From Alphaproteobacteria bacterium (GTDB taxonomy: Bacteria > Pseudomonadota > Alphaproteobacteria > UBA828), in the NCBI GenBank assembly GCA_965237415.1, contig CBDEFM010000001.1, positions 32,001 to 96,000 of the forward strand: a stretch of 64,000 nt of DNA. Direction: 5' to 3'. Of this stretch, positions 3,101 through 12,567 are shown one piece after another. The position numbers and the translations under genes were made by a program. The notes below the pieces were generated by a model. The model was not told where the DNA came from. It searched no databases and saw nothing but the letters and a program-made list of their open reading frames with translations. Each line of letters opens with the position of its first letter. Positions within the stretch are counted from its first letter, which is position 1.

Positions 3101-3655
3101 ATGGTGTGGATCAGGCCGGCAAGCCTATCGGACGCCTCCGCGATCGCCGACATCCAGGTCGAGACGTGGCGTGACACCTATGCCGGGCTGATCCCCGACA
3201 GGACGCTTCTGGGCCTGTCCCGCATGTGCCACATCGAGAGCTGGCGCCGGATCCTGCGTGACACACGGGCGGAATCTATCACGCGCGTGGCCGAGGGACC
3301 GGACTCCCGCGTCGTCGGCTTCGCCAACGCCGGCCGCGCGCGCCCGACGAACCTGCCCTATGACGGTGAGGTCTACACGCTCTATGTCCTGCCGGAACAC
3401 CAGGGTGCGGGTCACGGTCGGGGTCTGCTCGGCGCGCTGCTCTCGGCACTCTCGGCGGCCGGCTGTCGGAGCGCGTTGGTCTGGGTCTTGGCGGAGAACC
3501 CGGCTCGCTTTTTCTACGAGGCCATGGGCGGCACCCTCATCGCGACGCGGGAGGAGCCGTTCCACGGCGTCGTTCTCAGCGAGTGTGCGTATGGCTGGCC
3601 CGACCTCGGCCGCCACGCCGAAATGCGCACGTGGGCCTCCGACAGCAGCGGCTAG
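3101..3655 (+). CDS. GNAT family N-acetyltransferase
   Basis: IRPA...ETWRDTYAGLIP, LYVLPEHQGAGHGRGL (acetyl-CoA motif A), VWVLAENPARFFYEAMGG. Confidence 0.9.
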   Translation: MVWIRPASLSDASAIADIQVETWRDTYAGLIPDRTLLGLSRMCHIESWRRILRDTRAESITRVAEGPDSRVVGFANAGRARPTNLPYDGEVYTLYVLPEHQGAGHGRGLLGALLSALSAAGCRSALVWVLAENPARFFYEAMGGTLIATREEPFHGVVLSECAYGWPDLGRHAEMRTWASDSSG

Positions 3656-4116
3656 TGTTCTGTCCCAGAGATAGATGATATATTTATGGGCAGTTTCCTG
3701 TCAGGAGTCTGAGCTGGCCTCGCCCTGAGGTGGCCCCGGAAAATCGGGCAGGTCGCTAAGGTGTGCGCCACTTACAAATCTGATTTGCGGTACACTGAGG
3801 CTGACGTAGGGTTGCAGTTTCATCCTGTATCATGGTTATGATACAATAGCTTAGGGTTGCTGTCAAGGACGAATGGGGCTGGTTCGAACGACACAGAGAT
3901 CGACAAAGTGACACTGAGGAGTTGCGCTGGGGGATCAGGTGTGGAAGTTGGACTGGAACATCTATACAATCCTGTTGATCCGATAGATGGGATCTGTACG
4001 TAACCTATAAGTGATACGAGTGGTATGGCTATGAGGATTTCCCGAGGAATCTGTGTGACAACGTTTTCCATATGGAGATCTGCTGTGTTGCAGCTGACGC
4101 AGGCTTTTTCGGACGG

Positions 4117-4488
4117 ATGGCGGCCATGAGGGAGGATGCCAGCGGGCGCCGCCAGCGTGCCGTGATGGCGACCGATGAGGAGTGGGAACGGATCGGCCGG
4201 GCGGCTGCGGCGAGCGGCATGGACCTGTCGCGCTACGTGATCCATCGCGCGCTGGACCTGGCCCCTCTGCCGCCGGAAGTCCTGCGCCGGGCGGTGCGCG
4301 AGATGCTGGTGCTGTCCAGGCTGGAGGAGAGGCGGCTGCGCGGGGCCGGCGCCGGCGAGGCCTGGGAGGACGCTTGCGACGCGGTGGACGAATGGATCGA
4401 CCGGGAGGGCATGCTGGAGGGGCTGACCGATCCCGGCGCGGCGAACCGCTGGAAGGCGATTGGGCCGGCTGGAGAGGACGAGCCGTGA
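4117..4488 (+). CDS. Ribbon-helix-helix (MobC/TrwA/CopG-like) protein 1
   Basis: RRQRAVMATDEEWERIGRAAAASGMDLSRYVIHRAL fits the RHH beta-alpha-alpha pattern; upstream of relaxase. Confidence 0.65.
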   Translation: MAAMREDASGRRQRAVMATDEEWERIGRAAAASGMDLSRYVIHRALDLAPLPPEVLRRAVREMLVLSRLEERRLRGAGAGEAWEDACDAVDEWIDREGMLEGLTDPGAANRWKAIGPAGEDEP

Positions 4489-4796
4489 CGGAGGAGGCGG
4501 AGCGGTCCGGCAGGCGGCAGCGGAGCCTGCACTGCAAGCCTGCGGAGCAGGCGATGATCCGGGAGCGCGCGGCGGCGACGGAGAAGACAGTGTCGCGCTA
4601 TGTGATGGAGCTTGCGCTCGCCGACGATCCGGACCGCCATCCCCTGGTGCTGACGGAAGAGGAACAGGTGGAGCAGCAGGATGGGGTCCTGGAGTTGCAG
4701 GCATTGGCGCAGGCTCTCCGGCGCGAGCTTCCGGGCGGCAGCGGGCTGAGCCTGCTGAGCGCGATCTCCGTGCTTGCACGGGAGCGGGCGCCGTGA
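4485..4796 (+). CDS. Ribbon-helix-helix protein 2
   Basis: GTG overlaps previous TGA (GTGA); RRQRSLHCKPAEQAMIRERAAATEKTVSRYVMELAL. Confidence 0.65.
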   Translation: MTEEAERSGRRQRSLHCKPAEQAMIRERAAATEKTVSRYVMELALADDPDRHPLVLTEEEQVEQQDGVLELQALAQALRRELPGGSGLSLLSAISVLARERAP

Positions 4797-5248
4797 GACG
4801 GGCGCGGCGCCGCCGGAAGGTGGGCAAGCACATCTCGCTCTCGGCGACGGACGCGGATTGGGAGATCGTTCGCAGCAATGCAAAGCAGCGCGGCCTGTCG
4901 ATCGCGCGCTACCTGGTGGAGCTGGTGGAGCGGGACGCTTCGGAAGAGGACGCCGGTCCTGCGCTGGCGCTCGCGGCGGAAGAGCAGCGGGAGCAACTGG
5001 AGGCGGTGCGGGAGATTCGCGCGCTGATGCTGGAGGGGGAGGATGCGGGTCCCCTGGTGCGCGACATGCAGGAGCGGATCGCGGTGATGTTCGCCGCCTG
5101 GGCGTCTGCGATGGCCGGGTCGGGCCGCTCGGAAGAGCTGCGTGCGGCGCTCGCCTCGGTGCTGGGAGAGGAGCGAGCGCGCATCGCTGCGGCCTCGGTC
5201 GTGGCCTCGGTCGTGCCGTCTGCCGCGAAGCGGGCGAAGGTTCCGTAG
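4793..5248 (+). CDS. Ribbon-helix-helix protein 3
   Basis: GTGA overlap; KHISLSATDADWEIVRSNAKQRGLSIARYLVELV followed by a helical C-terminus. Confidence 0.65.
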   Translation: MRRARRRRKVGKHISLSATDADWEIVRSNAKQRGLSIARYLVELVERDASEEDAGPALALAAEEQREQLEAVREIRALMLEGEDAGPLVRDMQERIAVMFAAWASAMAGSGRSEELRAALASVLGEERARIAAASVVASVVPSAAKRAKVP

Positions 5249-5361
5249 GCCGGCGAAGGGAAGACGGACCCCCGCCAGGACCGGCTGCTGTGAGGCGGAC
5301 TCCGTCTCCGCCGCGACCCCGGTGAGGTGCAGGAGGTCGTCCACACGAGAGGAGGGGTAGC

Positions 5362-5733
5362 GTGACTGCGGACCGCGACGGCAAGAGCAGACAAGGCCAG
5401 CCGGACCTCCTGGCGAGCCTGCCGGCGGAGCGTCCGCCCGCTTCGCAGCCGGCACCCGGTATCGATCCGGCCGCGATCGAGGAATTGCTGACCGGGGTGC
5501 GGGACCTCCGCGAGCAGGTGGCCGGACTGAGCCGTGTCGCCGAGGGAGCGGCGGCCGCCAAACAGCCGGCGCCAGTAACGCCGGAGGCGCTCGAGGCCTG
5601 GGGCGACAAGCTCGTGAGCCGTGTCGCCGAGGCCGCGCGGACCGCGGACGCACCGGGGGACGAGGCGGCGGCGTTCCCCCTCTCTGCCTCTGCCGCTCAC
5701 CGGCGCGGCCTTATCCGAGGCCTGAGCCGATGA
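5362..5733 (+). CDS. Hypothetical protein (coiled-coil, possibly truncated), coupled to relaxase
   Basis: Strong RBS GAGGAGGGG before GTG; ATGA overlap with relaxase start; internal 18-bp direct repeat TGAGCCGTGTCGCCGAGG at 5528 and 5615. Confidence 0.5.
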   Translation: MTADRDGKSRQGQPDLLASLPAERPPASQPAPGIDPAAIEELLTGVRDLREQVAGLSRVAEGAAAAKQPAPVTPEALEAWGDKLVSRVAEAARTADAPGDEAAAFPLSASAAHRRGLIRGLSR

Positions 5734-8700
5734 CAGCCACGGTCGTGGTGGTTCGTTCGTCCGGCAAGGCGGTGATCTATTACGAGCGCGACGGCTACTA
5801 CCTCAAGAACGACCCCGAGCACCGCCAGGCGAGTTTTTGGTACGGGGATGCGGCGAAGGCGCTGGGGCTCAGGGCCCATGTGCGTCCGTCGCGCTTCGAA
5901 GCGGTGCTGTCGGGATACGTGCCCGGGACGGATCTGCGTCTCGGCCGGATGCGCGAGGGGCAGCACGAGCACCGGCCGGGCTGGGACATCACCCTGTCGG
6001 CGCCGAAGTCGGTGTCGCTGGAGGCGCTGGTGATGGGCGACCGCCGCGTGATCCGGGCTCACGACGAGGCGGTGCGCGCGACGCTCGACTTCGTGGAGGC
6101 GGAGCTTCTGCAGACCCGGGGCTGGGACCCGGCGACCCGCCGCCGCCCCCGGGTGAGCGCGAATGGCATGGTGGTGGCGGGGTTCCGGCATCTGGCGAGC
6201 CGCGACCAGGACCCGCAGCTGCACACCCACTGCGTGCTGGCCAACATGACGCGCACTGCCTCGGGCGAATGGCGGAGCGTGGAGCCGACGAAGATCCGCC
6301 GCAGCCAGAAGCTGATCGGAGCGTATTACCGGAACGAGCTGGCGCGGCGCCTCCAGGCGCTCGGCATGGCGGTGGCGCCGCGCATGGTGGGGCCGGTACC
6401 GGGGTTCGAGCTTGCGGGTTACGAGCGCTCGTTCATCGATGCCTTCTCGGGCCGGCGCCGGGCGATCCTGGAATACCTGGAACAAAAGGAGCTGTCCTAC
6501 ACGGCGGAGAATACGCAGATGGCGGCGCTGCACACGCGCCGGCGCAAGGAGGACCGGACTCTCGCGGACCTGGTGCCGGAATGGCGCGCGCGGGCCCAGG
6601 CACTGGGGCTGGTCCGGGAGAGAATGGCTCTGAGGCCACCCCGGCCCCTCGACCCGCTGACCGGCGAGCAGGTGAGAGTGCCGCGCGTGCCAGCGCCGGA
6701 CCTGCCGGCCAACGAGATCCGCAGCCAGAAGCGCGCGCCGGCGCTGCCGAAGCTGCCCCGCGACGGCGTTTCCGAAGGGGCGGAAGCGCGCCTCACAGGC
6801 GCGGGCTTCCGGGCGCCGGCGGAGCTGTTGCTGAAGCCGGAGCGGGGCGTTCTGGAGGCGGTGGCGCGGGCGGTGGCGCATGTTGCGGAGAGGCGCACCG
6901 CGGTCCCGGAGGCCGAGATCCGTGCGGTGGCGCTGGGACACGCGCCGGGGCGCTACACGCTGGCGGAGATCGACGCGGCGATCGCACGGCTTGTGCGTGA
7001 CGGCGAGCTGATCGAGGTGGAACGCCGGGGGATGGACCGGGCCTTCGTCACCGACCGGGCGGTGAAGGCTGAACGCCGCGTGCTGGCGTCGATGCGGGCG
7101 GGGCGCGGCAAGGGCATGGCGCTGGCGAACGGGGAGATGGTGGAGAAGCGGCTCGAGCCGTCGCGCCTCACCCGGGGCCAGAGGGAGGCGGTCCGCACGG
7201 TGCTGTTGTCGAACGACCTCGTGATCGGCGTGCAGGGCCATGCCGGCAGCGGCAAGACGACCATGCTGAGCGAGGTGAAGGAGCTACTCGGGGAGCGGAA
7301 GATACAGGGCCTGGCGCCGTCGGCCGTGGCCGCCCGGGTTCTCGCCAGGGAGGCCGGCATCCCCACGCGGACGCTGCAGTACTTCCTGACCCGCTTCGGC
7401 GACCTCTCGGACCCGGAGCGGCTGGCGCGGGCCCAGGCGGAGTACGCGGGCGCGGTTCTGGCGGTGGACGAGGCCTCGATGACCGGCAGCGTTCGCATGG
7501 AGGCGCTGCTGCGCGTCGCGCGCGCGCTGAAGGTGGCGCGGGTCGTGCTGGTGGGCGACACCAAACAGTTGAAGGCGGTGGATGCGGGGCAGCCCTTCCG
7601 TCTGCTGCAGAAGGCGGGCATGGCGACAGCGACGATGAAGGAGGTGAAGCGCCAGCGCGACCCGGAGCTGCGGGCTGCGGTGGGTCTTGCCCGGGAAGGG
7701 GAGCCGGGCGCGGCGATCGCGGGGCTGGGCAATCGGGTGCGCGAGGCGCCTCAGGAGGAGCTTGGGTTGGAGGCGGGGCGTCGCTGGCTCGCGCTGGCTC
7801 CGGAGCATCGGGCGGACACCCTGATCCTCGCCCCCACGCACGCGATCTGCCGGCAGGCGAACGAGGCCGTGCGCGAGGGGCTGGCGGAGGAAGGCCTGTT
7901 GAGGGGCCGCACACTCGCCGTCGACCGCCTGGTCAACCGGCGGCTCACCCGGGTGCAGGCCTCCGACATCCGGAGCTACGAGCCCGGCGACACCGTCGTG
8001 TTCCATCGCGACGTCTTCGGCTGCCGCGCGAACGACGTCTGCATCGTCATGGGCCACGACGACGGCAGGGTCGTGCTGGCCCATGCGGACGGCGAACGGC
8101 GGTTCCGGCCCTCGGGCAATGCGGCGGGCTATCTGGGCCTCTACGACACCGAGCGGATCGAGTTGCGTGCCGGCGACCTGATCCGCTGGACGCGCAACCG
8201 CAAGGCACCCCTCGCCCGCGGCAACCATCCCCAGGCGCCGGACCTGGTCAATGGCGGCGAGGCGGAGATCGTGGAGATCGGATACAAGCGGGTGCGCTTC
8301 CGCGACGGAGAGCGGGAGTTCAGTATCGCGCTCACCGACCCGCAGCTCCGCCATCTCGATCACGCGTATTGCTCGACCGTGCATTCTGCACAGGGCCGGA
8401 CGGCGCGGGGGGCGATCGCCGTGCTGGACGCAGGCGGCTGGGTCGACCCCGAGCTTTTTCATGTCGAGCTCAGCCGGGTCTCTGAGGCGTTCCTGCTGCT
8501 GACCGACGACCGGGAGGCGCTGACCGACGACCGGGAGGCGCTGATCGAGCGCCTTGAGGCGCAAGACTGGAGCGAGGACGGGGCGCTGGAGGCGTTGGGG
8601 ATCGACCTTTCCGAGCCCCCCGTGGTCGACCCCGAAGAGTTTGCGGCGCTGGCGGCGGACTGGCGGGCACTTCTGCGGGAGGGCGAGGAGAGGAACACCG

Positions 8701-10748
8701 TTCCGTTCTTCCTCACGGGCTACCGGGAAGTGATGGCGCGGGCTGCGGCGCTGGCGCAGATCGAGGACCTCCCGGAGGACATGCGCCGCCTTACCGGCAC
8801 CATGCTGGCGGAACACGAGGGGCATCTCGCGCGTGACCGCGAGGTGCGCGGCCTCGTCGAGCGCGTGCGCGACCATTGGCGGCGCTGGCCGGAGCTCGGC
8901 TGGGCGGCCTCCGCGCAGGGACTGCCCATCGAGGAGCTTGCCGAACACGATACCTGGCGCGAGGAAGGGGTGGCGCTTCTGGAGGCGGGCCGTGCCAGGC
9001 TCGGGGCGGACGGCGAGGCCGCACGCCATCTCCGTGCCATGCCGGGAGCGCGCGCCGGCCTGGAAGAGGCCATCGAGATGCTCGAGCGCACGCGGCTCCT
9101 CGACAATGCCGAACGCTTCGAACGGGCGTGGCCAGCGCTTCGCGAAGGGGCCTCGGAGATCGGCGTCCCGGAGCTGCATGCGCCCGGCCACCGGCTGGTG
9201 GCGGAGTTGGGCGAAAGGCTCGAGGCCGCCGAGGGGATCGATGCGCATGTACGGCGCGCGCTGGCGGAATGGCGGGAGGTCGAAGCGGCGCAGGTGGCGC
9301 TGGCGGAAGAGGTGCGCACCCTGCCCGGCCGCATCGCGGCGTGGCGGGAACGCCGGGCGGACCTGCCGCAGGACGAGCCCGGCGGGCTCGATCCGAAACA
9401 TCCCGCTCGCCGCGCCTGGCGCGAGGAAGGCGGTGCACTGGAGGCAGTGGCCGGGGACATGCTGCACCCCAAGAGCGTCCACGCGCCGCACCTGGCCGCC
9501 ATGCCGGGTGAGCGCAAGGCGCTGGTCGAGGCAACGAGCAGCCTCGAGAGCGCGCTGCTCGCGGTCGAGGCGCGGGAGAAGAACGTGCTGTCTGCGGTCG
9601 TGCGGCGGTCGGCGGACGAGCTCCGCCGAGACTGGAAGGCGCACCTCGCTGAGGCCGGGGCTGTCCGCGTCGATCCCTTCTACGTTCCGGGGCACGAAGA
9701 ACTCATCGACCGCCTGCAAAAGCTACGCGCCGACCCTGCCGTCGAGGAACTGCCCGAACGAGAACGCAACCAGATCGACTCCATCCTCGAACAAGACACG
9801 CGCCAGACCAAAGCCATCTTGCACGTCGACAACCATCTCGCCGAGGTCCAACGCTGCCGCAACCACCTCCAGGAGCTCCAGGATCTGGCATATACGTACA
9901 GACTCAAGCTTGAGAAGGTGCACTCCTACGACGAATGGCACGACACCGCAGAGCGCCTCTTCGCGGCGGGGAAGGCCATCACCGATGACCGGAAAACCTA
10001 CGGACCCTGCCTCGAACACCACCCCGGCGCCTGGAGCGGCGTCCACGCCGGCATCCGCGAGCTCGGCACGGCCCTGGGCCGCGCCACCACCTCCCTCCAT
10101 CACCGGCACCCCGAGCTTTACCTCGACCCCATCACCCGGCCCGTTCCCGACTCACAGCAGGCCATGGACGCCGACGCGAGCTACCGCCGCCTCCGCGACC
10201 AATGGCACACGCACGTCGCCCTGGCGGAGACCAGCCAAGCCCACCCCTACCACCTCAAGGGCCACGCCGCGCTCATCGACGCCATGCGCGAGCTACGCAA
10301 CCTGCCCGATCTCGCCACAAACGCTCAGCAGGCCCTCGATACCCTGCTCCACGACTACACCCCACTCCAACAGGTCCGACAGCACATCCACGCCTGTCTC
10401 GACAAAGCCGAGCACGCCTTGGAGGAGTACCAGCGCTTCAAGGACACCGTGCAAAAGCTTAGCCCACTGGACGTCGGCCTTGAGGACATCGAGGGCTATG
10501 GCGAATGGAAGGACCGCGCCCTGCGCCTGGCCGACGCCGGCGAGGCCATCCTCGCCGACCCGGAACGCTTCAGCATCCACCTCGACGACCACCCCGACGA
10601 CGCCAAGCGCATCCGTTCCAGCGTCGCACTCCTCAACACCGCCCTCGGGCGGGACGACGCATCCGAGCGTCGCGAACGACATCAATCCCTGTCCGAAGAC
10701 GAGAAGACCGCCGAACGCCTTTCACAACGCCGCGGCATCAAGCTCTAG
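5730..10748 (+). CDS. MOBF (TrwC/TraI-like) conjugative relaxase-helicase with repetitive C-terminal extension
   Basis: Y17Y18/Y23Y24 (IYYERDGYY), RPGWDITLSAPKSVS, HUH motif FRHLASRDQDPQLHTHCVLAN; SF1B helicase motifs GHAGSGKTT, VDEASM, GDTKQL and HAYCSTVHSAQGRT. Confidence 0.93.
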   Translation: MTATVVVVRSSGKAVIYYERDGYYLKNDPEHRQASFWYGDAAKALGLRAHVRPSRFEAVLSGYVPGTDLRLGRMREGQHEHRPGWDITLSAPKSVSLEALVMGDRRVIRAHDEAVRATLDFVEAELLQTRGWDPATRRRPRVSANGMVVAGFRHLASRDQDPQLHTHCVLANMTRTASGEWRSVEPTKIRRSQKLIGAYYRNELARRLQALGMAVAPRMVGPVPGFELAGYERSFIDAFSGRRRAILEYLEQKELSYTAENTQMAALHTRRRKEDRTLADLVPEWRARAQALGLVRERMALRPPRPLDPLTGEQVRVPRVPAPDLPANEIRSQKRAPALPKLPRDGVSEGAEARLTGAGFRAPAELLLKPERGVLEAVARAVAHVAERRTAVPEAEIRAVALGHAPGRYTLAEIDAAIARLVRDGELIEVERRGMDRAFVTDRAVKAERRVLASMRAGRGKGMALANGEMVEKRLEPSRLTRGQREAVRTVLLSNDLVIGVQGHAGSGKTTMLSEVKELLGERKIQGLAPSAVAARVLAREAGIPTRTLQYFLTRFGDLSDPERLARAQAEYAGAVLAVDEASMTGSVRMEALLRVARALKVARVVLVGDTKQLKAVDAGQPFRLLQKAGMATATMKEVKRQRDPELRAAVGLAREGEPGAAIAGLGNRVREAPQEELGLEAGRRWLALAPEHRADTLILAPTHAICRQANEAVREGLAEEGLLRGRTLAVDRLVNRRLTRVQASDIRSYEPGDTVVFHRDVFGCRANDVCIVMGHDDGRVVLAHADGERRFRPSGNAAGYLGLYDTERIELRAGDLIRWTRNRKAPLARGNHPQAPDLVNGGEAEIVEIGYKRVRFRDGEREFSIALTDPQLRHLDHAYCSTVHSAQGRTARGAIAVLDAGGWVDPELFHVELSRVSEAFLLLTDDREALTDDREALIERLEAQDWSEDGALEALGIDLSEPPVVDPEEFAALAADWRALLREGEERNTVPFFLTGYREVMARAAALAQIEDLPEDMRRLTGTMLAEHEGHLARDREVRGLVERVRDHWRRWPELGWAASAQGLPIEELAEHDTWREEGVALLEAGRARLGADGEAARHLRAMPGARAGLEEAIEMLERTRLLDNAERFERAWPALREGASEIGVPELHAPGHRLVAELGERLEAAEGIDAHVRRALAEWREVEAAQVALAEEVRTLPGRIAAWRERRADLPQDEPGGLDPKHPARRAWREEGGALEAVAGDMLHPKSVHAPHLAAMPGERKALVEATSSLESALLAVEAREKNVLSAVVRRSADELRRDWKAHLAEAGAVRVDPFYVPGHEELIDRLQKLRADPAVEELPERERNQIDSILEQDTRQTKAILHVDNHLAEVQRCRNHLQELQDLAYTYRLKLEKVHSYDEWHDTAERLFAAGKAITDDRKTYGPCLEHHPGAWSGVHAGIRELGTALGRATTSLHHRHPELYLDPITRPVPDSQQAMDADASYRRLRDQWHTHVALAETSQAHPYHLKGHAALIDAMRELRNLPDLATNAQQALDTLLHDYTPLQQVRQHIHACLDKAEHALEEYQRFKDTVQKLSPLDVGLEDIEGYGEWKDRALRLADAGEAILADPERFSIHLDDHPDDAKRIRSSVALLNTALGRDDASERRERHQSLSEDEKTAERLSQRRGIKL

Positions 10749-10856: not shown

Positions 10857-11603
10857 CTAGCCTTCGCTCCCCTTGGCGCCATTGGGCTGCTTGGCCGCGA
10901 AGGCCTGTCGCACGAGCTCCATCGCGTAAGCAATCTGGCGGGCGTTATCCACCTCCAGCTGGACGTCGCCGTTGCCCCAGAGCCCGAGATTGGTGATGTC
11001 GGCCGCAAGCCCGCGCGGATCGGAGATTTCGTCGAAGCGCATGTTGAGGGTGAGCAGGAGCCGGCGCTTCTGCGGCACGATGTCTGTGAAGTTGGTCTGC
11101 GTCTTGTAGGCGACGTAGTGCCTCGTGAACTCTTCGCGGACCTCCGGCGCGAGGCCGAGGATCTCCTGCCTGACCGCCTCGAAGAGGTCGTGCATCGGCG
11201 CGCCGGGACGCAGATGCGGGTGATGCTCGATGGCGTAGCGGCCGGCGCCGGCGCGCGGGGTCCTGTACGGTTCGAGGACGCGGTCGGGGAGAACCGGACG
11301 CTTCCAGATCCCGACCGCCTCGTCAGCGAGACGCGCGCCGCGGGCGCGGATGGTATCGCCGTCCCAGCGCTCCGTCTGCCGCAGGTCGGCGTTCAACCGC
11401 AGTGGGCTGTCGCGGTATCCCTTCTCGGCATCGCGCTTGTCGCGGAACGGCCTGTTGCCCATCTCCGGGTTGAAGGCGGTGAGGGTCAGGTTGCCGAGGG
11501 TATGGCGGAGGCTCTGCCAGGTCTGCGCCCAGTCGGGCCCGAGCTCGGCCTTCCATGTTTCCGGCAGGCGTTCGCCCTGCGGCATGATGTGATCGACCGT
11601 GTA
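10857..11603 (-). pseudogene. 5'-truncated GmrSD-like type IV restriction nuclease (DUF1524 HNH plus DUF5655-like C-terminus)
   Basis: YTVDHIMPQ...HTLGNLTLTAFNPEMGNRPF...SPLRLN, then HYVAYKTQTNFTDIVPQKRRL...GLWGNGDVQL. N-terminal DUF262 part is absent. Confidence 0.8.
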
Positions 11604-11604
11604 A

Positions 11605-12567
11605 GGCGGCCACGACGTGACGTTCGTCGACATCGTGGACGACCACGTCGACGCGATCGCGACGACCGGGCTTGCGATCGAGGGCCCGGTCGACCGCTTT
11701 ACCGCCACCGCGCCCGCCGTCACGCCCGACGCGCTGAGCGGCCGATACGGGCGCGCGCTTCTCTGCGTAAAGGGCCAGGACACGGACGCGGCGGTGCGCC
11801 GCCTCGCGCCATTCCTCGCCGATGACGGCTACGCCGTCTCCGTTCAGAACGGCCTCAACGAGCACACGATGGCAACGGTGCTGGGGCGCGAGCGCGTGAT
11901 CGGCTGCTTCGTCAATTTCGGAGCGGATTACATTGAACCTGGCCGTGTCCACTATGGCGGCCGCGGGGCCGTCGTGCTGGGCGAGCTCGACGGGCGGATG
12001 ACGCCGCGGCTCGACGCGCTCATCGATGTGTTCCGCGACTTCGAGAGCAACGCCCGGGCGAGCGCGAATATCTGGGGATACCTGTGGGGCAAGCTCGGCT
12101 ACGGCGCGCTGCTTTTCGCGACCGCGCTCGCCGATGATTCCATCGCCGACGCGCTGGCGCAACCGGCTCATCGCACGCTCTACCGCGCGCTCGGCGAAGA
12201 AGTCATGCGGGTCGCGCACGCCGGCGGCATTGCGCCCGAGGGCTTCAACGGCTTCGATCCTGCCGGCTTCGTCCCCGGCGCGGACGCGGCGGCTACCGAA
12301 CGTTCGATGTCGGCCATGGTGGCCCACAACCGCGGCTCGGCGAAATCGCACAGCGGGGTGTGGCGCGATCTCGCCGTCCGCAAGCGGCCGACGGAGGTTG
12401 AGCCGATGGTCGGCGCCGTCGCCCGCGAGGCCGCCCGGCACAGCATCGACACGCCTCTCCTGGCCCGGCTCACCGCCATGATCCACGAGATCGAGGAGGG
12501 ACGGCGCCCGCTCGATCGCGCCAACATCGACGCGCTCGCAGGCGAGGCGGCGCGACTGGCGGCCTGA
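11605..12567 (+). pseudogene. Ketopantoate reductase (PanE/ApbA) family, N-terminal Rossmann motif missing
   Basis: Frame begins GGHDVTFVD directly after in-frame TAA (11602-11604); LCVKGQDT, SVQNGLNE, LWGKL, RPTEVE present; no GxGxxG. Confidence 0.75.

Follow-up and report, generated by a model that had tools for sequence, protein, structure and literature searches.

Three ribbon-helix-helix genes beside a MOBF relaxase in an alphaproteobacterial genome probably belong to a truncated integrative mobilisable element

The stretch of alphaproteobacterial DNA studied here, which we refer to as the window, comprises 64,000 nucleotides of contig CBDEFM010000001.1 (assembly GCA_965237415.1) and contains a cluster of 3 overlapping genes for small ribbon-helix-helix (RHH) proteins, RHH1 to RHH3, followed by a short open reading frame (ORF4) and a gene for a MOBF relaxase-helicase. 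This locus is probably the DNA-processing module next to the left attachment site (attL) of an integrative mobilisable element (IME) whose other end is missing. Complete relatives, 18 to 37 kb in length, contain, in this order, attL, a repeat region, the genes for RHH1, RHH2 and RHH3, the relaxase gene, cargo genes, 2 tandem genes for tyrosine integrases, a hairpin, a 10-nt core and the right attachment site (attR). We describe the anatomy of the locus, the paralogy and conservation of its RHH genes, its insertion sites, its truncation and a type IV secretion system (T4SS) located elsewhere in the same genome. The noteworthy features are the triple RHH set, the association of a MOBF relaxase with a canonical IME and an origin of transfer (oriT) that is apparently split by integration.

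The RHH gene triplet and its relaxase

The 3 RHH genes are chained by GTGA overlaps at 4485-4488 and 4793-4796, as seen in the ORF map and the sequence, with the GTG start codon of RHH2 overlapping the TGA stop codon of RHH1 (Table 1). The start codon of RHH1 that is kept in relatives is the ATG at 4126 (alignment A1). The best Pfam family for all 3 proteins was the NikA-like family PF21983, with scores of 24.4 bits for RHH1, 23.3 bits for RHH2 and 20.0 bits for RHH3, short of the curated cut-off of 27 bits, which the RHH2 orthologue of sub-family 2 exceeded with 39.5 bits. In sets of 20 orthologues per protein, taken from related loci of 4 sub-families, a NikA-like match at E<=0.01 was obtained for 20 of 20 RHH1, 20 of 20 RHH2 and 17 of 20 RHH3 sequences. 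Profile-profile comparisons of the orthologue alignments connected RHH1 to RHH2 with 96.9% probability (E 1.4e-10), RHH2 to RHH3 with 98.8% probability (E 5.7e-17, over 71 columns that include the P.L.L..EEQ helix), and RHH1 to RHH3 with 96.9% probability. A search of the PDB with the RHH2 orthologue profile retrieved the NikA fragment 2ba3 (E 1.1e-4), and searches with the RHH1 and RHH3 profiles retrieved weak matches only.

These comparisons confirm, at the level of sequence, that RHH1, RHH2 and RHH3 are paralogues. The original prediction, made from the letters of the window, had recognized a strand and a helix in each of the 3 GTGA-chained ORFs and read them as RHH paralogues with different strands, and both the Pfam and the profile-profile evidence agree with it; the P.L.L..EEQ motif that it had seen in the second and third copies lies within the aligned columns, and the ATGA overlap that it had described between ORF4 and the relaxase gene is found at 5730-5733. 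The strand signatures are constant per lineage across the sub-families, R.QRAVMAT in RHH1, R.RSL.C in RHH2 and ..IS.S(C/A)TD in RHH3, and RHH1 furthermore has a C-terminal helical hairpin with the conserved motif LTDPGAA.RW. The triplication is old, and each of the 3 proteins has become specialised.

The predicted complex of RHH2 and RHH3 obtained a score of 0.58, compared to 0.08 for the best of 3 controls, with contacts that agreed to at least 92% between runs and predicted local distance difference test (pLDDT) values of at least 73 for the partners (custom alignments). Of 157 solved complexes, 116 passed the mark applied to such predictions, as did 2 of 215 mismatched pairs, but passing scores of 0.60 or lower were obtained for only 18 of the 157 solved complexes and for both of the passing mismatches, such that a pass at the 0.58 level is more often wrong than right unless the pairing is likely beforehand. 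Moreover, the score cannot separate heterodimers from homodimers, because any RHH pair may pass through its likeness to solved dimers. The prediction thus gives weak support to a mixed complex of RHH2 and RHH3.

Three tandem RHH ORFs were identified by domain hidden Markov models in 22 of 24 related loci, which were found through RHH1 and represent 4 sub-families within a single alphaproteobacterial genus. Close relatives of RHH1 were present in 14 loci in alphaproteobacterial metagenome-assembled genomes, 5 of which showed the order RHH1-2-3-ORF4-relaxase with a relaxase that aligned over at least 1300 amino acids, while 2 contained a truncated relaxase and the rest were partial. The expectation that the triplet is kept beside relaxase homologues was thereby borne out, the full order being seen in this smaller set. 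The relaxase gene is located downstream of the triplet in the sub-family of the window and is convergent with it in the more distant sub-families; since the association is kept in both layouts, it survives rearrangement. Matches to RHH1 were found in 17 of 20 other genomes of the genus, with up to 41 in one genome, and with RHH1 as the only query a single weak match was obtained among 28 genomes of other genera in the order. A collection of 5.8 billion proteins contained 367 relatives of RHH1, of which those with a named source were all labelled hypothetical, and a search of plasmid records with RHH1 gave nothing at E 0.01. The window's own genome contained 9 TrwC matches and several partial copies of the locus.

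The relaxase scored 257 bits against TrwC (cut-off 25), 263 bits against the NCBIfam MobF model (cut-off 100) and 159 bits against AAA_30, and it contains tyrosine pairs (YY) at residues 17 and 23, the HTH of the histidine motif at 165 and a Walker A motif at 506. A TrwC score over the cut-off, tyrosine pairs, a histidine motif and a fused helicase of superfamily 1B (SF1B) place the predicted protein in the MOBF (TrwC/TraI) class. Its closest relatives in plasmid records were at most 36.7% identical over at most 58% of the query, and the 2 nearest of them are encoded in the R388-like order of small ORF(s), coupling protein and MobF. It was also noted that the C-terminal third of the protein (residues ~1000-1670; window 8700-10700) has no plasmid relatives and contains degenerate hL..MPG....L repeats when inspected by eye; a BLASTP comparison of the protein with itself identified no internal repeats at E 1e-3. 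The relatives of the relaxase range from 1588 to 2034 amino acids and vary in this third.

Family profile searches, including Pfam and NCBIfam, gave no match to any known family for ORF4. It is a shortened form and is 64% identical to residues 1-105 of a relative of 227 amino acids; the relatives are at least 227 amino acids long, and the matches in them are split. An ORF of 381 amino acids that precedes the relaxase gene in sub-family 2 was considered as its counterpart and rejected, as there was no significant likeness (E 0.33).

Table 1. Features of the window copy and its junctions (coordinates refer to the window)
Feature	Position	Strand	Description
Target DNA	3725..3764	+	Left inverted repeat of an IS3-like element, outer 40 nt; ends with GGTGT (3760-3764)
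attL-side non-coding region	3765..4125	+	Variable AT-rich stretch of ~20 nt, then conserved blocks and repeats
RHH1, NikA-like ribbon-helix-helix protein	4126..4488	+	120 aa from the conserved ATG; 123 aa from 4117
RHH2, NikA-like ribbon-helix-helix protein	4485..4796	+	103 aa; strand signature R.RSL.C
RHH3, NikA-like ribbon-helix-helix protein	4793..5248	+	151 aa; longer helical C-terminal domain
ORF4	5362..5733	+	123 aa; ATGA overlap with the relaxase gene
MOBF relaxase-helicase	5730..10748	+	1672 aa; TrwC domain 12-291, SF1B helicase ~480-940
GmrSD-type (type IV restriction) gene fragment	10857..11607	-	Island cargo with DUF5655; N-terminal half lost
Deletion or rearrangement junction	11607..11608		Island fragment ends, chromosomal DNA starts

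Ends, insertion sites and complete relatives

The homology among 26 aligned copies of the locus begins directly after the pentamer GGTGT, and the DNA to the left of it is unrelated. Among the 25 informative copies of sub-family 1, as read from the alignment, GGTGT stands at the boundary in 19, is located behind an internal duplication in which the first bases of the element are repeated in 3, and is replaced by a one-base variant in another 3. The left ends of sub-family 2 follow GGTGT in 9 of 11 copies and GGCGT in the other 2. The pentamer was native to the target in all 5 sites for which an uninterrupted copy is known, namely the end of an element of the insertion sequence (IS) family IS3, which is the case in the window, a coupling-protein gene, the istA gene of an IS21 element, a chromosomal gene and the 5' end of a gene for tRNA-Pro. 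The lost N-terminal part of the coupling-protein gene beside the copy at C1:579947 is absent from the genome.

The possibility that the 41 nt preceding the window copy are part of the island was considered and rejected, as they represent the end of an IS3-like element that was used as target. The same 40-41 nt were found at 3 other places in the genome, where they are followed by different sequence, at one place with an orfA-like start, and other copies of the island that bear the IS3-like repeat have unrelated DNA outside the repeat. No match to the remainder of the IS3-like element was found in the related loci compared. The genus is rich in IS elements, including IS3, IS5, IS21, IS110, IS1595, Mutator and Tn5-like elements.

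Within the non-coding region on the attL side, TAGGGTTGC is repeated at 3807 and 3852 and ACACTGAGG at 3792 and 3911, with an 8-nt inverted repeat at 3826-3845. The blocks are conserved in 25 copies (alignment A1), and the same block order was seen by eye in sub-family 2. This region is a candidate both for RHH binding and for the operon promoter, and it would represent one half of an oriT region, of which the hairpin half is missing in the window copy. Some variation was observed at the left end itself. In one copy (L069, G048:C1:1757901-1767000, ~5300-5480, minus strand), a tandem array of the 20-nt repeat CACCAAAGGATAGTGATTTG is located between GGTGT and the left end, and 2 other copies contain duplications of 8 and ~45 nt at this position. 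In a pair of copies (L120 and L123), the first 20 nt after GGTGT are wholly different, and the sequences are 99.3% identical elsewhere.

The far junctions of 2 elements were located by means of their empty sites, which delimited an element of 36.6 kb in genome G045 and an element of at least 22 kb, present on 2 contigs, in genome G043. The right ends of both consist of TTAGCACC, 3 bases, GGTGCG, 1 base and a 10-nt repeat of the target whose last bases are GGTGT. The two junctions and a 10-nt direct repeat of the target are present in each element, and in both the 2 tandem tyrosine integrase genes are located 62-118 bp inside attR. The hairpin motif of attR occurred 23 times in 4 of 5 further genomes, compared to 0 times for the reversed control; an integrase gene was located just inside all 23 sites, and the core ended in GGTGT in 20 of them. 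Matching 10-nt cores paired an attL and an attR into an element of 29 kb, and they also paired the ends of an element of ~18 kb, which belongs to the window's own sub-family and is inserted in an IS3-like repeat. With a recombinase of their own and both attachment sites, the complete relatives are classified as IMEs.

No T4SS family was identified among the 23 cargo ORFs scanned in the 36.6-kb relative. Its cargo (L127:1968-4385, L126; G045:C6) includes a Phd/PIN toxin-antitoxin pair, a large serine recombinase, a Mu-like transposase with an AAA helper, a Tn5-like transposase, a sigma factor of the extracytoplasmic function type and a Calx-beta protein of 1673 amino acids. It was also noted that on G000:C1 an attR-type end at 275669, with an integrase pair at 275767-278043, shares the core GAGGAGGTGT with an attL and RHH triplet at 382365. 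The 107-kb span between them (G000:C1:275660-382377) contains an F-type T4SS, a coupling protein, a TrwC relaxase of 1076 amino acids and a mer operon, and could represent either a single large conjugative element of this family or several elements nested within one another.

Truncation, proposed transfer cycle and rival explanations

The window copy represents only the attL-side 7.9 kb of such an element and ends at 11607/11608. The homology of its GmrSD gene to the copies in relatives stops at 11608, and the homology to the chromosomal flanks in other genomes ends at 3655 on the left side and starts at 11607 on the right side. The match to GmrSD_C in the window starts at profile position 47, and the relatives contain full-length genes for 756 amino acids with GmrSD_N. 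The adjoining ORF for a ketopantoate reductase (ApbA, 11617-12567), which overlaps the ORF of the GmrSD fragment, is without the first 24 profile positions (its match starts at 25), and the deletion that took away the right-hand part of the island probably cut this gene as well. Still present in the window copy are attL, the repeat region, the 3 RHH genes, the short ORF4 and an intact relaxase gene, and it is without the hairpin, the integrases and attR. Because these 3 parts have been lost, it is likely immobile, and most likely no longer mobile by itself.

No hairpin motif was found in the window, nor was any T4SS, coupling protein or integrase family identified among the 45 ORFs scanned (5 + 18 + 22), although small genes could have been missed because the ORFs were chosen by their length and third-position GC. 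The window thus has its own relaxase and accessory genes and no T4SS genes among the scanned ORFs, as in an IME, but it has attL as its only attachment site and no recombinase, and there is no inverted repeat with a nick sequence of the R388 or F type beside the accessory sites. Since the window copy is truncated and the complete relatives carry integrases, the missing integrase reflects decay and not design. The original prediction had proposed an undescribed mobilisation system without an integrase, a T4SS or a coupling protein. The lack of the latter 2 holds for the scanned ORFs of the window but not for the genome, which contains an F-type T4SS (C1 309-330 kb) with TraL, TraE, TraK, TraB, TraC, TraN, TraH, TraG and a coupling protein. 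The coupling protein is of the TrwB type, another MOBF relaxase is encoded in the same region (C1 309-333 kb), and the T4SS and its coupling protein are a candidate helper. As the complete relatives carry 2 tandem tyrosine integrases and a relaxase-type hairpin, and as T4SS and coupling-protein genes are present elsewhere in the genome, the proposed novelty was not sustained, and the system belongs to a known kind, the IMEs.

Some further observations concern the surroundings of the lost end. At G000:C2:76434-76458, an attR-type hairpin with the core GTTAAGGTGT is joined to the remainder of the IS3-like element that precedes the window copy; no integrase is left at this site, which has IS21 and IS110 genes instead, and the site may represent the right end that the window's element has lost, relocated to the other contig. 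In the closest genome, G048, the sequences that flank the island on the left and on the right do not adjoin each other, and the island therefore marks a point of rearrangement. A conserved stretch of 100 bp to the right of the GmrSD gene in some relatives was tested as an RNA gene or attachment site and rejected, as no Rfam family was matched in 4 loci and no tRNA was identified in 6 loci; the alignment identified it as a fragment of a DsbA-like gene that has been carried along. DsbA-like fragments of differing length were found beyond the full GmrSD gene in 4 loci (L082, L099, L107 and L083, in G048 and G039), and the gene is single-copy elsewhere in the genus; the fragments are a sign of segmental duplication of the island plus its flank.

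For the complete elements, we propose the following cycle. The integrase pair would excise the element, and the circle would join the attR hairpin (GCACC-N3-GGTGC) and the 10-nt core with GGTGT to the repeat region of ~350 bp at attL and the RHH operon. As the hairpin and the accessory region stand at attR and attL, respectively, in the integrated element, they would be joined only after excision, and this would yield an oriT of the usual MOBF kind. The 3 RHH proteins, each with its own recognition strand, would bind to the joined region as accessory factors of the relaxosome, would probably also act as autoregulators, and would assist the MOBF relaxase in nicking beside the hairpin, near the core. 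The strand led by the relaxase would then exit by way of a T4SS and a coupling protein supplied by a resident conjugative element, and in the recipient the integrases would insert the element 3' of a GGTGT.

A more far-reaching version of this scheme, which we put forward as a tentative possibility that may well prove wrong, is that integration splits the oriT. The hairpin and core would be left at attR, and the RHH binding region would be left at attL, together with the genes for the RHH proteins and the relaxase, at a distance of tens of kb, and from this placement at opposite ends it would follow that a working oriT exists only in the circle. The integrase crossover and the relaxase nick would fall within the same 10 nt, the RHH trio would build the relaxosome on the new junction, and the relaxase, which could join strands at GGTGT as TrwC does, may act in insertion or excision alongside the integrase pair.

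Several observations weigh against the IME reading or parts of it. All 4 genes of the window copy are still open, which fits a recent truncation or a function retained in trans. Both of the fully delimited elements belong to sub-family 2, and the 18-kb element of the window's sub-family was delimited by its core match. A pattern of joined attR and attL, as in an attP or a tandem, gave 10 near-matches in 21 genomes, and in none of the 6 that were inspected was it followed by a left end or by RHH1. The count of triplets is silent on relaxase homologues without RHH1, since the loci were found through RHH1. With regard to the fold, the RHH proteins of the window all score below the Pfam cut-off, and the AlphaFold2 monomer models of RHH1 (pLDDT 73.0; extended N-terminus, helices 17-29 and 34-43, then a helical C-terminal domain) and RHH3 (pLDDT 72.7; extended N-terminus, helices 16-28 and 33-43, then a helical C-terminal domain) contain no strand, but the RHH sheet is expected only in the dimer, such that the models neither prove nor disprove the fold. 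The Foldseek matches of these models to RHH structures all had E >1; NikA (2ba3) ranked first for RHH1 with E 1.1, and the RHH proteins AtaR, Arc, CopG, ParG and NikA took the top ranks for RHH3. As no match had an E value below 1, the assignment of the fold rests mainly on the sequence profiles. Finally, DNA binding by the RHH proteins, the position of the nick, excision and the helper used are parts of the scheme that we infer.

It is unlikely that the RHH proteins are transcription regulators of the island or antitoxin-like proteins rather than parts of a relaxosome. They have weak matches to the RHH antitoxins TacA1, ParD, AtaR and KacA, but no toxin-like gene follows any of the RHH genes, and the NikA-like family was the best family for 57 of 60 orthologues. 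The RHH genes furthermore always travel with a MOBF relaxase and adjoin the attachment site and hairpin junction. Plasmid RHH accessory proteins often also repress their own operon, as MobC of RA3 reportedly does, and regulation and relaxosome function are not mutually exclusive.

The absence of an integrase from the window, and from many other copies within the sequence stretch compared, could also mean that the 3 RHH proteins, ORF4 and the relaxase form a self-sufficient minimal cassette, in which the relaxase inserts the strand at GGTGT as TrwC does in the laboratory. The left end is located exactly after GGTGT, the pentamer that precedes the nick of F TraI according to oligonucleotide data (PMC3074121), and TrwC is described as integrating transferred DNA into targets containing nic, with enhancement by the RHH protein TrwA (PMC3264647). 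However, the copies that have no integrase terminate at deletions, IS elements or gene fragments, whereas an integrase gene is found just inside 23 of 23 attR-type ends and integrase pairs are present in the 2 delimited elements and at C1:275767-278043. The 10-nt direct repeat of the target also fits a staggered exchange by a recombinase and not a single-strand joint at nic, and we regard a minimal cassette as quite improbable. A rolling-circle transposon of the IS91 or Helitron type, in which the relaxase-helicase drives movement, one end is fixed and the other is subject to read-through, would suit the fixed left end beside a short target motif, the fusion of an HUH nuclease to a helicase and the right ends that seem to vary among partial copies. 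Complete copies nevertheless have defined right ends with a hairpin, a core and integrases, and cargo differences, IS insertions and deletions explain the variable ones. Transposition of the IS91 type or by the relaxase alone was dropped once complete elements with integrases and a defined attR had been found, and we consider it highly improbable.

If the locus is the arm of an IME, the genus carries a prolific MOBF-based IME family, of a class for which the survey in a 2017 review listed no member (PMC5704250). The unusual traits of this family would be a fixed set of 3 specialised RHH accessory proteins and the separation of the oriT halves by integration, and it would provide a natural system for the division of work among RHH proteins at a single oriT, for the gating of transfer by excision and for the sharing of one site by nick and crossover. 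For annotation, the lesson would be that a relaxase without an integrase or T4SS can be the surviving arm of a broken island, and that such islands can be delimited by GGTGT at attL and by the hairpin and integrase pair at attR.

Comparison with known systems

The RHH proteins resemble NikA of R64 (2ba3) and the family PF21983, which covers mobilisation proteins of the MobA/MbeA type, in their N-terminal basic strand and 2 helices, over ~40 residues, and in the location of their genes upstream of the relaxase gene. They differ in that there are 3 paralogues instead of 1, each with an added helical domain of 60 to 100 residues at the C-terminus, and in that the window copies score below the family cut-off. 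The partner relaxase is a MOBF protein here, whereas NikB of R64 is a MOBP relaxase.

With the TrwA-TrwB-TrwC system of R388, the locus shares a MOBF relaxase-helicase with 2 tyrosine pairs and an RHH accessory protein, and the hairpin at the attachment core matches the inverted repeat IR2 of R388, as given in PMC4176350 and 2 other papers, in its 5-nt arms and in the 2 bases that follow. IR2 is described there as having a GAAA loop that is free and a proximal arm that is essential for TrwC (PMC4176350). Unlike in R388, there is no coupling-protein gene between the accessory genes and the relaxase gene, the loop of the hairpin is 3 nt, the distance from the arm to the junction is 12 nt, the accessory genes are located 3' of the presumed nick, and the element is integrated. 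Because TrwC is reported to integrate transferred DNA at nic-like targets, with enhancement by TrwA (PMC3264647), the relaxase may have a role at the shared GGTGT.

The TraY/TraM/TraI system of F likewise combines a MOBF relaxase with more than one RHH-type accessory factor. TraY and TraM have folds of the RHH type, but they are 2 different proteins and not paralogues as the 3 proteins here, and F is a plasmid with a T4SS of its own. TraM is described as a tetramer that binds oriT (PMC3159463), and the nick of F follows GGTGT, the pentamer that ends the core of this family, in experiments with oligonucleotides (PMC3074121). In pLS20, 2 RHH auxiliary relaxosome proteins, Aux1 and Aux2, are encoded upstream of the relaxase gene and are reported to be both essential (PMC5675868); they are 2 and not 3, they belong to a Gram-positive conjugative plasmid, and we liken them by description and not by sequence.

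The canonical IMEs, such as NBU1 and Tn4555, are described as having their own integrase, relaxase and oriT and no T4SS, as depending on a helper and as frequently occurring in decayed copies (PMC5704250), all of which resembles the elements described here. A statement in the same review, as of 2017, is that no canonical IME with a MobF relaxase was known and that none of this category had been described in Proteobacteria (PMC5704250); more recent surveys may have altered this picture. The present elements differ by their MOBF relaxase, their alphaproteobacterial host and their 2 tandem integrases, and in that the hairpin is located at one end of the integrated element and the accessory region at the other. 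In a narrow literature search, with subscription journals outside it, no description was found of 3 paralogous RHH genes at a single relaxase. The original prediction that 3 RHH proteins exceed the usual 1 or 2 accessory proteins is true of the published systems compared here, in which relaxosomes have been described with either 1 RHH protein, as with NikA and TrwA, or 2, as with Aux1/Aux2 of pLS20 and TraY/TraM of F, whereas the locus in the window contains 3.

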